Shown piece by piece: positions 44,427 to 48,153 of a DNA stretch of 64,000 nt. How positions within the stretch are numbered: position 1 is the stretch's first letter; the number at the start of each line of letters is the position of its first letter. The DNA is from Candidatus Dormibacteria bacterium. Lineage in GTDB: Bacteria > Chloroflexota > Dormibacteria > Aeolococcales > Aeolococcaceae. The DNA is taken from positions 47,517 through 111,516 of the forward strand of contig JBEKXW010000001.1 in NCBI GenBank assembly GCA_049511615.1, written 5' to 3'. The position numbers and the translations under genes are program-made. The notes beneath the pieces are model-generated. The model made no database searches, was not told the DNA's origin, and saw nothing but the letters and a program-made list of their open reading frames with translations.

Positions 44427-44756
44427 TCAGCCACCTCCGGGCTGCGGGACCAGGCGGGGATTGGCCGCCTGGGCCTGGTCCACCTGCTCGAAGGCGGCGA
44501 GGATCCGCTCGAGGGCCTGGACGATCCCGGTGCACCCGCCGGTCCCGAGCGAGTCGAGGGAGTGGACCAGGGTCGTGACCTGCTCGCTCAGGGTGACGCA
44601 CTGGCTGCCGCCGACGCTCGGGTCGCCGAGGGGGGCGCAGTCGGCGCCCAGCTGGCCGGCGAGTGCCACCACCGTCCGGCCCTGGGTGGTGAACGCCAGC
44701 GCGCATTCCTCGAACGCCGGGATGACCACCCGCAGGTCAGAGGATCCGCTCACCAC
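44427..44756 (-). CDS. small hypothetical protein downstream of WXG100 gene (possible EspC-like / T7SS-associated partner)
   Basis: 109-aa track ORF, 37 nt downstream of the WXG100 gene on the same strand. Ends in a Gly/Pro-rich tail. Only weak resemblance to the EspC (PF10824) family. Confidence 0.35.
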   Translation of the reverse strand: MVSGSSDLRVVIPAFEECALAFTTQGRTVVALAGQLGADCAPLGDPSVGGSQCVTLSEQVTTLVHSLDSLGTGGCTGIVQALERILAAFEQVDQAQAANPRLVPQPGGG

Positions 44757-44793: not shown

Positions 44794-45096
44794 TCACTGG
44801 GCCCGGATCGTCCCGGCGATCGCCTGGTCGTGCTCGTCGTAGGACTGCCCGGACCTCTCCAGGCGGGTCGCCACCGCCATCAGCGCGTCGTGGCAGGTCT
44901 GGGCAGCCCGGTGCCAGTCGGCGAAGAGGTCGCCGAAGGCGTTGGCGCCGAGACCCAGCCAGGAGTCGAGGAGCGCCTGGACCCGCTGCTGGGTCTGGGA
45001 GATGGTCTGGTCCATCTGGCTCGCGTAGCTCCTGACCTGGACCGCGTGGGCCTGGAGCTCCCCCTTGCCGACCTTGAGGAGATCGCTGGTTGCCAT
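44794..45096 (-). CDS. WXG100-family (EsxA/EsxB-like) protein
   Basis: 100 aa with a central W-L-G turn (LLDSWLGLGANAFGDLFADW) and predicted helix-turn-helix. ATG at 45096, with a GGGGAGGGA SD ~9 nt upstream. Confidence 0.65.
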   Translation of the reverse strand: MATSDLLKVGKGELQAHAVQVRSYASQMDQTISQTQQRVQALLDSWLGLGANAFGDLFADWHRAAQTCHDALMAVATRLERSGQSYDEHDQAIAGTIRAQ

Positions 45097-45295
45097 CGGC
45101 GCCGTCCCTCCCCGGATGTGATGCGGGTGGTCCGCCCCGGCCCGCGGGCCGGCGGCGGCCATGGGAGCCAGTCTCGGGTCCGGGTGCGGACATCCCACGG
45201 ACAAAGTCCCGGTCACCGAGCGGCGACCGGCGTGCCGGCCCGACCCGTCTGCGAAGCCGCCCTTCCGGGCTGTCTCCGGGGTGGCCGCGCCTACC

Positions 45296-46093
45296 TCAGC
45301 GATCCGCCGCTCCGGTCGCACCTTTATCACGGCCGGCGGCCGCCTCCAGCGCGATGAGGCGCCGCACCCCGCCCACCGCGATGTCGATGGCGGCGTCGAC
45401 GGGGAGGCGGCGCGCATCGGGGAGCCCCGCGACTCCCTCCGACGCGCTGTCGATGACCGCGAGCACCGCCCCGGCGCGCACCCGGCGCACGGCGGCGACG
45501 GTGAGCAGGGTGGCCGACTCCATCTCCGCCGCGATGCAGCCGGCGCGGGCCCAGGCGTCCCAACGCGCCCGGATCAGCCCCTCCTCCGGGAAGCTCTCGG
45601 GCTCCATCTCGGCGTAGAAGGCGTCGTTGCTGAGCACGACCCCCACCCGGCATGGGTGGCCGGCCACCCGGGCGGTCTCGCGCAGGGCGAGCACGACGTC
45701 GAGGTCGGCGACCGCGGGGAATCCGGCGGGGGCGTAGTGGTCGGGGGTCCCGTCCCCGCGCGCCGCCGCCTGCACCACCACGACGTCGCCGAAGCGCAGG
45801 CTCGGGTCGAGGGCGCCGCAGCTGCCCACCCGGACGAGGGTCCGGGCACCGGCCCTGACCAGCTCCTCCACCGCGATCGCCGTCGAGGGACCGCCGATCC
45901 CGGTGGAGGTGACGCTGACGTCCACCCCGTCCAGGCTTCCGGTGTAGGTGGTGAACTCGCGGTGAGCGGCGATCCGCCGCGCACCGTCGAGCCGCGACGC
46001 GATGACCTCGCACCGGCCCGGGTCGCCGGGGAGCAGCACGTAGCCGCCGATGTCGCCGGCCTCCACCTGGAGGTGGTACTGCCGCTCGCCCAC
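45296..46093 (-). CDS. nucleoside phosphorylase (PNP_UDP_1 family; uridine/purine nucleoside phosphorylase-like)
   Basis: VLLPGDPGR...TGIGGPSTAIAVEEL...RVGSCGAL...EMESATL is the PNP/UDP phosphorylase family-1 signature. Confidence 0.8.
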   Translation of the reverse strand: MGERQYHLQVEAGDIGGYVLLPGDPGRCEVIASRLDGARRIAAHREFTTYTGSLDGVDVSVTSTGIGGPSTAIAVEELVRAGARTLVRVGSCGALDPSLRFGDVVVVQAAARGDGTPDHYAPAGFPAVADLDVVLALRETARVAGHPCRVGVVLSNDAFYAEMEPESFPEEGLIRARWDAWARAGCIAAEMESATLLTVAAVRRVRAGAVLAVIDSASEGVAGLPDARRLPVDAAIDIAVGGVRRLIALEAAAGRDKGATGAADR

Positions 46094-46182: not shown

Positions 46183-46668
46183 ATGCGATCCAGCCGGGTC
46201 GCCGTCGGCAGCGACAGCCGCGACCCGGTCGCCGACTCGATCGCCGCGAACCTCGAGGACGCGGGGTTCGCCGTGATCCGCTGCGGGGCGGTGGAGGCCG
46301 CCGCCACGCCCTGGCCGGAGGTGGCCGAGCAGGTGGGCCGGCTGGTGGCCCAGGGGGCTGCCGAGGCCGGCGTCGTCTGCTGCTGGACCGGGACCGGCGT
46401 CAGCATCGCCGCCAACAAGGTTCCCGGCATCCGGGCGGCGCTCTGTAAGGACGCCGAGACGGCCCGCGCCGCCCGCCGCTGGAATGGCGCCAACGTTCTG
46501 GCGCTCAGCCTCGACGGCGCCACCCCGGACTCCGCTCAGGCCATAGTCGACGCCTTCCTGGGAAGCGGCGGCGTCGATCCCGAGGAGGTCGCCAACGTCG
46601 AGCGCGTCGCCGGGATGGAGCGCCGCTACGGCGCGAGCGGGAGCGCGCAGCGGACCCGGCGGGCCTGA
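46183..46668 (+). CDS. rpiB: ribose-5-phosphate isomerase B (RpiB/LacAB family)
   Basis: MRSSRVAVGSDSRDPVADSI...GAVEAA...VVCCWTGTGVSIAANKVPGIRAALC is the RpiB fold. ATG at 46183 inside the track ORF. Confidence 0.85.
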   Translation: MRSSRVAVGSDSRDPVADSIAANLEDAGFAVIRCGAVEAAATPWPEVAEQVGRLVAQGAAEAGVVCCWTGTGVSIAANKVPGIRAALCKDAETARAARRWNGANVLALSLDGATPDSAQAIVDAFLGSGGVDPEEVANVERVAGMERRYGASGSAQRTRRA

Positions 46669-46720
46669 CCGTGACCCACCGCGCCCCGGCCTCCCCGGCG
46701 GGCCGCCCGCGCTGCGTAGG

Positions 46721-48025
46721 ATGGATCCGGTGACGGGCGCTCGCATCCTCTGCGTCATGGGCTCCGGGGAGACCGCCCCGACCATGGCCCCCGTCCACCG
46801 CGAGCTCATCGAGCGGGTGGGGGGGGACGCCGCGCGAGCGGTGCTTCTCGACACCCCCTTCGGCTTCCAGGAGAACGCCGACGAGCTGGTGGCGCGGGCC
46901 CAGGAGCACTTCGACCGCAGCATCGGCCACCCTCTGGAGCTGGCCAGCCTGCGCCGCGCCGAGACCGCCACCGAGGTCGAGCGGGAGGCCGCCTACAGCC
47001 GCATCCACGCGGCGGACTACGTCTTCTCCGGGCCGGGCAGCCCCAGCTACACCCTCCGCCAGTGGCGCCAGACCGAGGTCCCCGGTCTGCTGCGCGACAA
47101 GCTGGAGCAGGGCGGCTGCGTCACCCTCGCCTCGGCGGCGGCGATCACCCTCGGGATCGTCTCCCTCCCCGTCTACGAGATCTACAAGGTGGGCGAGCCG
47201 GTCCACTGGCTGGACGGTCTCGACCTGCTCGCCGTCGCCGGCATCCGCGCCGCGCTGATCACCCACTGGGACAACGCCGAGGGCGGGACCCACGACACCC
47301 GCTTCTGCTACATGGGCGAGGGTCGCCTCACCCAGCTCGAATCCCTCCTCCCCGACGGGGTGGCCATCCTGGGGGTCGACGAGCACACCGCTCTGATCCT
47401 CGACCTCGGCGCCGAGCGGGTCGAGGTGCGCGGCCGGGGGCGGGCGGTGGTGCGCCGGAGCGGGGTGGAGTCGAGCCTCCCCGCCGGCACCGAGACCACC
47501 CTCGGGGAGCTGCGGGCGATGCTCACCGGCGCCGGCGGGCCAGCGGCCCGGTCCACGGTCCCGGCCCGGGTGGAGGTCCCCCCGGAGCCCGCCGGGCGGG
47601 AGGAGCCGTTCATGGCGCTCCTCGGTGAGCGTCAGGATGAATTCGACCGCGCCCGTGACCGCAGCGACGTGGCGGGGATGGTCGCCGCCATCCTGGGCCT
47701 CGAGACGACCATGGCCGAATGGTCGAGTGAGACCTTCTCCGGCGACGAGCGCGAGCGGGGCCGGTCGCTGCTCCGGCGGATGGTGACCCGGCTGGGGGAG
47801 CTCGCCACCGAGGGGGCCGCCGACCCCCGGGAGCGGGTCGCCCCCTTCGTGGAGGCGATGCTGGCGATGCGCCGGCAGTTCCGGGCGGAGCGGCGCTTCG
47901 ACGACGCCGACCACCTCCGCGACCTGCTCACCGGGTGCGGGATCGAGGTGCGCGACGGCCACCGGGGCGAGGGCAGCGGCTGGGAGCTCGCGCCCCGGGC
48001 GGCGGGCCGCCCGGGGACCCCGTGA
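46721..48025 (+). CDS. fusion protein: peptidase S51/cyanophycinase-like (class-I glutamine amidotransferase-like) N-domain + cysteinyl-tRNA synthetase C-terminal (DALR_2-like) domain
   Basis: N-terminus ILCVMGSGETAP...YVFSGPGSPSY...LGVDEHTALILD resembles S51/cyanophycinase. The C-terminal ~140 aa (FMALLGERQDEFDRARDRSDVAG...ERRFDDADHLRDLLTGCGIEVRDGHRGEGSGWEL) parallels the CysRS C-terminus (FMEAMDDDFNTP...[33 protein letters not shown]). Confidence 0.55.
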   Translation: MDPVTGARILCVMGSGETAPTMAPVHRELIERVGGDAARAVLLDTPFGFQENADELVARAQEHFDRSIGHPLELASLRRAETATEVEREAAYSRIHAADYVFSGPGSPSYTLRQWRQTEVPGLLRDKLEQGGCVTLASAAAITLGIVSLPVYEIYKVGEPVHWLDGLDLLAVAGIRAALITHWDNAEGGTHDTRFCYMGEGRLTQLESLLPDGVAILGVDEHTALILDLGAERVEVRGRGRAVVRRSGVESSLPAGTETTLGELRAMLTGAGGPAARSTVPARVEVPPEPAGREEPFMALLGERQDEFDRARDRSDVAGMVAAILGLETTMAEWSSETFSGDERERGRSLLRRMVTRLGELATEGAADPRERVAPFVEAMLAMRRQFRAERRFDDADHLRDLLTGCGIEVRDGHRGEGSGWELAPRAAGRPGTP

Positions 48026-48153
48026 CCATCAGGGGGCGTGCCGCCCCCTCGCCCCCGTGGCAGAGCCACAAGGGGCTCACCCCTGGCTCGGCGCGACTCC
48101 GCGCCGCCAGGCCGCCCGGGGACCCCGTGACCATCAGGGGGCGTGCCGCCCCC
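48006..48153. repeat. two 43-bp direct repeats (GCCGCCCGGGGACCCCGTGACCATCAGGGGGCGTGCCGCCCCC), 105 bp apart, each with a GGGGGCG-TG-CCGCCCCC hairpin
   Basis: Copy 1 at 48006-48048 contains the stop of the upstream gene. Copy 2 at 48111-48153 ends 28 nt before the AKR ATG. A GGCGCGACTCCGCGCC palindrome lies between them. Confidence 0.6.

Follow-up and report, generated by a model that had tools for sequence, protein, structure and literature searches.

An S51-type hydrolase domain fused to a cysteinyl-tRNA synthetase-type anticodon-binding module: a conserved protein family of Dormibacterota, Actinomycetota and Chloroflexota

The fusion gene and its domains

The window analysed here, a 64,000-nucleotide stretch of a Candidatus Dormibacteria contig (JBEKXW010000001.1), contains a gene that joins a hydrolase domain of the peptidase S51 type to the anticodon-binding module of cysteinyl-tRNA synthetase (CysRS); both building blocks are known, and their combination is an uncharacterised, conserved architecture. 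The open reading frame (ORF) starts with ATG and stops with TGA, at exactly the coordinates first assigned to it (46721-48025, + strand). While the window has a guanine-plus-cytosine (GC) content of ~74% and presents long spurious ORFs in every frame, the GC content at codon positions 1, 2 and 3 of the fusion ORF (0.77, 0.52 and 0.96, respectively) is typical for a 74% GC genome, indicating that this ORF is a real gene. An antisense ORF (46505-47962, - strand, 485 amino acids [aa]) covers nearly all of the gene; because the third-position GC content of the + frame is 0.96, this antisense ORF represents a typical high-GC artefact. No signal peptide was evident at the N-terminus when the translation was read by eye, with no predictor, in keeping with a cytoplasmic location. 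The gene and its parts are as follows:

46721-48025, + strand: whole gene, stop included, encoding the 434-aa fusion of an S51 hydrolase with a CysRS-type anticodon-binding domain (from the ORF list)
46742-47530, + strand: S51-fold (class I glutamine-amidotransferase-like) hydrolase domain, aa 8-270 (from the model, Foldseek and the profile)
47132-47134, + strand: codon of Ser138, predicted nucleophile, in the motif A-S-A-A-A (aligned to the serine of C-S-A-G-A in 6nqc)
47264-47266, + strand: codon of His182, predicted general base of the triad (aligned to the histidine of I-P-H-F in 6nqc)
47381-47383, + strand: codon of Glu221, predicted third triad residue, in the motif G-V-D-E-H-T-A (aligned to G-I-D-E-x-T-A-L in 6nqc)
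47531-47605, + strand: variable, predicted-disordered linker, aa 271-295 (from model confidence and low conservation)
47606-47824, + strand: three-helix spacer, aa 296-368, at the site of the CysRS helical bundle, with homology shown for the last helix only
47825-47989, + strand: CysS_C-type anticodon-binding module, aa 369-423, two helices and a beta-hairpin (from Pfam, the profile and hhalign)

The first part of the protein had been read in an earlier note on this DNA as an S51/cyanophycinase-like hydrolase, and both profile and structure comparisons bear this out. The query alone stays below the thresholds of the Pfam family Peptidase_S51 (PF03575; 16.1 bits, gathering cut-off 23.9) and of the cyanophycinase equivalog TIGR02069 (14.4 bits, cut-off 126.6), and matches the Protein Data Bank (PDB) entry 6nqc, a “cyanophycinase-like exopeptidase”, with E=0.015. 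In the 29-sequence alignment that served as family profile (alignment A1), 12 of the 29 members reach E<=0.01 against Peptidase_S51 and the best member matches TIGR02069 with E=2.8e-5; the profile itself gives a full-length match to 6nqc (E=1e-4). The same alignment was the input for an AlphaFold2 model, which has a mean predicted local distance difference test (pLDDT) score of 83, with most of the S51 domain at 83-97. Foldseek matched this model to 6nqc (E=2e-12), PepE (6a4r, an aspartate-bound form, and 1fy2) and CphB (3en0 and 7uqw, the latter in complex with a cyanophycin dimer; E=1e-8 to 1e-10 for PepE and CphB), all with a probability of 1.0, and target-normalised template modelling (TM) scores were 0.65-0.78 against 6nqc, PepE from three organisms, and cyanophycinase.

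Conservation was counted among 150 family representatives sharing <=50% identity. Ser138, His182 and Glu221 are kept in 149/150, 150/150 and 142/150 representatives, respectively (the third position is Asp in 1/150), and 52 columns of the S51 domain are >=90% conserved. The predicted order Ser-His-Glu reproduces that of the PepE triad, Ser120-His157-Glu192 (PMC9239234). The domain also presents invariant motifs of its own (DTPFGFQENAD and PVYEIYKVG) and, after the catalytic His, an invariant insert, NAEGGTHDTRFCYMG, which includes H191, D192 and C196 and has no counterpart in 6nqc. Judged from these comparisons, the N-terminal domain is a divergent S51 subfamily, recognised mainly by profile and fold. 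PepE, CphB and 6nqc (a peptidase of an acI-B1 actinobacterium) have the alpha/beta fold, the Ser-His-Glu order and a similar domain size (~260 aa) in common with the fusion protein; however, the fusion protein is only 12-20% identical to them and, unlike every characterised S51 enzyme, carries a ~140-aa C-terminal extension with a terminal tRNA-synthetase module.

The whole of this extension (the last ~140 aa) had been taken for the C-terminal domain of CysRS; demonstrable CysRS homology covers approximately the last 70 residues (aa ~350-423) and not the remainder. While the query alone falls short of the Pfam CysS_C cut-off (19.5 bits, cut-off 23), CysS_C is matched by 26 of the 29 members (best E=3.3e-10), and the family profile finds four CysRS structures (8qhp, 6ujd, 3tqo and 1li5) at E=2e-7 to 8e-6, scores that owe next to nothing to composition bias. 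With hhalign, a profile of the C-terminal 142 residues aligned to residues 383-459 of Escherichia coli CysRS with a probability of 94% (E=1e-7), the alignment beginning at aa ~350 of the query. The motif ...DWA.AD..RD.L...GI...D...G..W, pointed out before these searches, is exactly the CysRS terminal signature; it is conserved in the family and present in full in the module, as in the four solved CysRSs. Profile, CysS_C and hhalign results agree that the similarity is far beyond chance and is no effect of low complexity, including the Arg/Asp-rich composition that a domain scan might have revealed. The module has the helix-helix-hairpin layout of CysS_C in CysRS (E. coli residues ~403-461 in 1u0b), and a helical segment precedes it in both proteins.

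Seven residues of E. coli CysRS touch nucleotide G34 of the tRNA in the structure 1u0b: Arg423, Arg427, Trp432, Ala435, Asp436, Arg439 and Asp451 (PMC12684709). When these positions were transferred through the family-profile alignment to CysRS structures, all seven were found to have conserved counterparts in the family, as listed here with counts among non-gap sequences of the 150 representatives:

R384: E. coli CysRS R423, conserved in 139/140
R388: E. coli CysRS R427, conserved in 135/142
F393: E. coli CysRS W432, aromatic in 136/141, most often Trp as in E. coli
A396: E. coli CysRS A435, Ala, Ser or Gly
D397: E. coli CysRS D436, conserved in 136/141
R400: E. coli CysRS R439, conserved in 140/143
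D412: E. coli CysRS D451, conserved in 134/142

The segments between the two domains drift. The linker presents a mean majority frequency of 0.23, a length of 0-92 residues across the family (median 22) and pLDDT <50 over aa 274-292, and the helical spacer a mean majority frequency of 0.39-0.43. This contrast with the conserved triad and G34 pocket is the strongest indirect argument that the module has been kept for a CysRS-like role.

The modelled spacer helices comprise residues 296-313, 317-335 and 341-366, and their assignment to the DALR_2 type failed: Pfam DALR_2 (PF09190) has no match in the query or the 29 members, with E. coli CysRS as control carrying DALR_2 at residues 341-395. The helical segment alone (aa 293-372) finds no CysRS in a PDB profile search (best E 0.6, to unrelated proteins) and reaches 0.3% against E. 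coli CysRS in hhalign. Because one alignment to a hidden Markov model (HMM) extends back to 8qhp residue 360 and the top Foldseek match of the C-domain model is 1u0b_B, the tRNA-bound E. coli CysRS (132 columns, probability 0.98, E=0.03, with poor superposition), shared descent of the spacer helices with the CysRS helical bundle is plausible but unproven. A suggested similarity to MshC was not recovered either, with no MshC chain among the PDB matches of the family profile at E<=1. The Rossmann catalytic domain of the synthetase (Pfam tRNA-synt_1e, which E. coli CysRS matches with 507 bits) is found neither in the query nor in the 29 members. Unlike CysRS, the fusion protein thus has no Rossmann catalytic domain, no stem-contact fold and no detectable DALR_2; it cannot aminoacylate and is not a CysRS.

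Distribution and annotation of the family

Gene calls on at least 24 independent metagenome contigs give the same protein, letter for letter, with matching neighbours, and its nearest relatives (73-93% identical) come from peat and soil metagenome-assembled genomes (MAGs) labelled Candidatus Dormibacteria or Dormibacterota. Of 8,000 candidates in a word-indexed search, at least 7,928 clusters at 90% identity proved homologous. When 1.84 billion representatives were searched exhaustively with the profile, 739 clusters at 50% identity reached E<=1e-30, and the fusion is encoded in at least 597 GTDB species genomes. Carriers belong to the Dormibacterota and the Actinomycetota (Acidimicrobiia, and Actinomycetes including Pseudonocardiales and Kineosporiales) and include MAGs labelled Chloroflexota; among cultured carriers are Kineosporia sp. 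A_224 and Angustibacter peucedani. CysS_C is present in 139 of the 150 representatives. Representatives with a seemingly different C-terminus proved to be frameshifted or truncated gene calls, one tail being a translated tRNA gene. The fusion, regarded as unusual when only this locus had been seen, is a large, conserved and stable family across three phyla.

In line with the earlier note, no characterised member was found. There is no dedicated Pfam or NCBIfam model for the fusion family, a search of the available literature found no description of the fusion or of its database names, and the names given by the sources clash (“hypothetical”, “cyanophycinase-like exopeptidase”, “CysS/YqeB C-terminal domain-containing protein” and “Cysteinyl-tRNA synthetase”). 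The last of these, attached to UniRef100_A0A934KBQ6 (P0083), is a misannotation, because the protein has no synthetase catalytic domain; this wrong name could propagate. E. coli YqeB, taken as a control for the “CysS/YqeB” domain name, has no CysS_C match and was unusable for this purpose. PADLOC defence-system models gave no match for the query or three family members.

Gene neighbourhoods and tRNA genes downstream in Actinomycetota

In the window, the fusion gene follows a gene for RpiB on the same strand with a 53-bp gap; a divergent PNP/UDP phosphorylase gene is located upstream of RpiB and an aldo/keto reductase gene downstream of the fusion gene. These neighbours, as well as a lactonase-like and a histidine kinase gene, are kept in the closest relatives only and are, therefore, uninformative on function. 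Gene context was counted over 80 related loci, and among these no protein-coding neighbour is conserved between phyla; no cyanophycin synthetase gene was found among the neighbours in the window or the 80 loci, this search covering the neighbourhoods only.

Within single lineages, several arrangements recur. An alpha/beta-hydrolase (S33-like) gene lies directly upstream in 12 Acidimicrobiia loci, with a start/stop overlap or within ~60 bp, and an M17 leucyl aminopeptidase gene lies directly upstream on the same strand, with a gap of ~46 bp, in five Dormibacteria loci (L016, L023, L025, L026 and L031). What looked like tandem paralogs upstream of the gene in some Dormibacteria loci were M17 leucyl aminopeptidase genes that noise in single-linkage clustering had joined to the family. 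In seven Dormibacteria loci (L012, L018, L019, L024, L026 and others) a divergent gene ~40 bp upstream encodes the epoxyqueuosine reductase QueG, a modification enzyme of tRNA position 34. Some Actinomycetota loci present a ClpS-DUF2017 block upstream at variable distance, and no cysteine-biosynthesis genes were seen near these loci. Rfam scans of the window and the related loci found no riboswitch or T-box near the fusion gene; the window (1-64000) contains no Rfam family at the gathering threshold and no tRNA gene. When E. coli CysRS was the query of a tblastn search, no match was found in the window or in any of the loci.

In 28 of the 80 loci, all from Actinomycetota, no other feature separates the gene from a same-strand tRNA-Glu(UUC) downstream (Rfam scan, then ARAGORN), which is usually followed by tRNA-Asp(GUC) and tRNA-Phe(GAA). 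The linked loci are:

L013, L017, L022, L027-L030, L033, L034, L038, L050-L052, L054, L055, L057, L059, L062, L066, L067, L069-L071, L075, L077, L078, L081 and L083

The linkage persists while the upstream protein-coding neighbour varies (at least 11 clusters across the 28 loci); it is missing from the window (64 kb) and from the Dormibacteria and Chloroflexota loci. From the end of the conserved domain to the start of the tRNA there are 12-186 nt in 27 loci and 331 nt in one, and the gap from stop codon to tRNA is 8-141 nt in 20 of the 28. The other eight loci (L017, L055, L083, L070, L022, L029, L028 and L077) lack an in-frame stop ahead of tRNA-Glu, so that the ORF continues into the tRNA or beyond it; were the tRNA cut out of a transcript extending across both, the mRNA would be left with no stop codon. 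Read-through ORFs end in tails such as ...PPSSSGLGHHPFKVAARVRIPLG, and the database protein P0257 carries a translated-tRNA tail.

A -10-like hexamer, TANNNT (often TGnTAnnnT), is present 16-43 nt upstream of the tRNA 5' end in 27 of the 28 loci, compared to a rough chance estimate of ~20% of loci, and sits at or overlaps the 3' end of the protein gene. The sequence pattern suggests that the tRNA operon probably has its own promoter, partly embedded in the coding sequence; the adjacency of gene and tRNA may, given this element, be compact conserved synteny with possible read-through. The tRNA-operon adjacency gives weak and ambiguous support to a tRNA-related role.

Tyrosine-integrase-like ORFs (cluster c17, assigned by eye) adjoin tRNA-Glu downstream in L057, L067, L070, L075 and L078. 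An insert of ~1.1 kb separates tRNA-Glu from tRNA-Asp in L013 and L050, where it carries a ~315-aa ORF (cluster c46), and, from the tRNA spacing, probably also in L059 and L077. These arrangements suggest that tRNA-Glu is an integration site for mobile elements.

A direct repeat of 44 nt was identified at the 3' end of the fusion gene in the window:

48005-48048, + strand: copy 1, overlapping the 3'-terminal six codons of the gene and its stop
48110-48153, + strand: copy 2, in the spacer ahead of the aldo/keto reductase gene

The two copies are identical (49 nt at 96% identity) and spaced 105 nt apart, and each contains a GGGGGCG-tgc-CGCCCCC hairpin; two copies in the 64-kb window compare with 0 expected by chance. 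The repeat may be a terminator-like element or may have been left behind by a duplication. A scan for consensus promoters and terminators around the fusion gene found none.

Elsewhere in the window, 44427-44756 (- strand) and 44794-45417 (- strand; 100 aa in the L001 call) encode a WXG100/EspC-like small protein and an adjoining 109-aa protein with no family match. In what seems to be a Dormibacterota genome, they hint at a pair of type VII (ESX-like) secretion substrates in a phylum other than Actinomycetota and Bacillota.

Proposed function and competing explanations

We tentatively propose, as the reading towards which we lean without regarding it as probable, that the fusion protein is a tRNA-docking serine hydrolase with a target of the tRNA-Cys type, acting on a group carried by the tRNA. 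As a cytoplasmic two-module enzyme, it would dock on the anticodon loop of a tRNA through the recruited CysRS anticodon-binding domain; by homology, the docked tRNA would be tRNA-Cys, because the G34 pocket is intact. The three-helix spacer and the flexible linker would tether the S51-type serine hydrolase (Ser138-His182-Glu221), whose triad would attack an acyl, aminoacyl or peptidyl group on the docked tRNA to give an acyl-enzyme intermediate; this intermediate would then be hydrolysed (as by a deacylase or in a trans-editing-like reaction) or handed to an acceptor. Such a tRNA-linked hydrolytic role gains indirect support from the conservation of all G34-contact residues together with the Ser-His-Glu triad, and the fixation of the fusion, with CysS_C in 139/150 representatives and frameshift or truncation artefacts as the exceptions, also supports it. 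Starting from both homologies, the fold, the conservation of the triad and of the G34 contacts, and the constancy of the fusion across three phyla, we infer tRNA binding by the module, the identity of the tRNA, a tRNA-borne substrate and the chemistry. That an S51 hydrolase captured the CysRS anticodon reader to select tRNA-Cys or a few G34 tRNAs, removing or transferring their cargo, is possible although on balance doubtful; example roles would be trans-editing of misacylated tRNA-Cys or diverting Cys-tRNA-Cys out of translation.

We know of no trans-editing deacylase in which an S51 catalytic domain is combined with an anticodon-binding domain taken from a synthetase. YbaK/ProXp, AlaX, D-Tyr-tRNA deacylase and peptidyl-tRNA hydrolase act in trans by hydrolysis on the tRNA ester and are the proposed parallel, as a functional analogy only; their folds are unrelated to that of the fusion protein, and none was matched by the query or the 29 members. 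That an S51 enzyme can act on an aminoacyl-nucleotide bond has a useful precedent in MccG, which severs Asp from the nucleotide part of processed microcin C, a compound that mimics aspartyl-adenylate (PMC9239234). MccG and the fusion protein have the S51 fold in common, and MccG, which acts on an amino acid-nucleotide bond (PMC9239234), is the closest precedent for S51 enzymes in aminoacyl-adenylate and aminoacyl-tRNA chemistry; however, the MccG triad ends in Asp and the protein is a single domain encoded in or near mcc clusters in some genomes, whereas the fusion protein has Glu, two modules and no mcc-like cluster in the loci examined.

Several observations weigh against our proposal. Binding of tRNA by the module would follow from homology, and its conserved residues are no proof of tRNA reading, because some may stabilise the fold; all three segments of the protein are net acidic, making net charge uninformative. 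The CysRS anticodon pocket is ~70 Å from the active site (bioRxiv 10.1101/2025.02.14.638259), a distance that the poorly conserved spacer and variable linker would have to bridge. Characterised S51 enzymes all cleave amide bonds after Asp (PMC9239234), not tRNA esters. The gene context conflicts with a simple tRNA-Cys reading, since tRNA-Cys is never near the fusion gene in the 80 loci and the linked tRNA genes are those for Glu, Asp and Phe only; moreover, the -10-like element upstream of these tRNAs allows for mere synteny, and the M17 aminopeptidase or alpha/beta-hydrolase gene upstream in two lineages fits plain peptide catabolism.

This last point leads to the main rival explanation, an ordinary S51 exo- or dipeptidase (for Asp-X, beta-Asp or related small peptides) in the catabolism of peptides or of a nitrogen reserve, which we consider possible but somewhat unlikely. 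The C-terminal module would here be regulatory or structural, i.e., a sensor (with, for example, uncharged tRNA switching the activity) or a domain for oligomerisation or stability, and a poorly conserved spacer and linker would suit an accessory module on a loose tether. Fold and triad match those of PepE and cyanophycinase, the amide specificity after Asp extends to all characterised S51 enzymes (PMC9239234), and the M17 aminopeptidase (five Dormibacteria loci) and alpha/beta-hydrolase (12 Acidimicrobiia loci) genes would be fitting partners. However, near-invariant residues of the G34-reading type are hard to explain in a purely structural appendage; the N-terminal domain is distinct, with the DTPFGFQENAD and PVYEIYKVG motifs and the insert NAEGGTHDTRFCYMG, and misses the cyanophycinase equivalog widely (14.4 vs. 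126.6 bits); and no peptidase neighbour is conserved across phyla.

A tRNA-docking hydrolase may instead be aimed at the adjoining acidic or G34 tRNAs, its module having drifted from recognition of GCA to a broader G34-type recognition; targets would be Asp-tRNA and Glu-tRNA, including the misacylated Asp-tRNA-Asn and Glu-tRNA-Gln of the indirect pathway. We judge this to be quite unlikely. It would account for tRNA-Glu(UUC) as first downstream feature in 28/80 loci, with the ORF reading into the tRNA in eight, and for the low conservation of the helices expected along the anticodon stem, which is far below that of the G34 pocket; tRNA-Asp and tRNA-Phe carry G34 too, and S51 enzymes are Asp-specific (PMC9239234). 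However, the linkage is restricted to Actinomycetota, being missing from the window and from Dormibacteria and Chloroflexota loci, and adjacency may be synteny alone given the -10-like element in 27/28 loci; in addition, tRNA-Glu itself has U34. The equivalents of CysRS R439 and D451, residues that adjoin G34 in CysRS, are also invariant; we suspect that these two residues may read C35.

Even less probable, in our view, is an immunity or detoxification enzyme similar to MccG that would cleave a toxic aminoacyl-nucleotide (an inhibitor of aminoacyl-tRNA synthetases), possibly after an aminopeptidase has removed a carrier peptide. As MccG shows, aminoacyl-nucleotides are within the reach of S51 enzymes; its standalone homologues confer protection on diverse bacteria, and PepA-type M17 aminopeptidases process microcin C (PMC9239234), an M17 gene being located upstream in five loci. 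However, the MccG clade (clade V) has Asp as third triad residue (PMC9239234), while the fusion protein shares Glu with PepE and CphB; none of the loci examined presented an mcc-like cluster; it is not obvious what an anticodon-binding module would contribute when the substrate is a small molecule; and the gene, which has no PADLOC match, behaves as a conserved housekeeping gene in stable synteny and not as an island gene. An artefact, i.e., a chance ORF or a chimeric call joining two unrelated genes, is refuted and practically without probability, since, although high-GC DNA yields many long spurious ORFs, the frame has a third-position GC content of 0.96, thousands of independent assemblies, as well as isolate genomes, contain the identical architecture, and the model is confident across both domains.

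The fusion is conserved in hundreds of species of three phyla that dominate many soils, peatlands and lakes, and its recognition corrects the annotation of thousands of sequences; since cultured carriers exist, its function is directly testable. If the module no longer reads tRNA, the family would still be a useful case of a tRNA-synthetase domain that was given another job. If the module still reads tRNA, as our tRNA-docking proposal has it, the family would represent a new kind of tRNA-directed hydrolase or transferase, in which the recognition domain of a synthetase has been put to new use, directing a foreign catalytic domain to one tRNA. Should the reading of tRNA-Cys or G34 prove true, the fusion would add a new catalytic fold to the quality control or utilisation of aminoacyl-tRNA in Actinomycetota, Dormibacterota and Chloroflexota.

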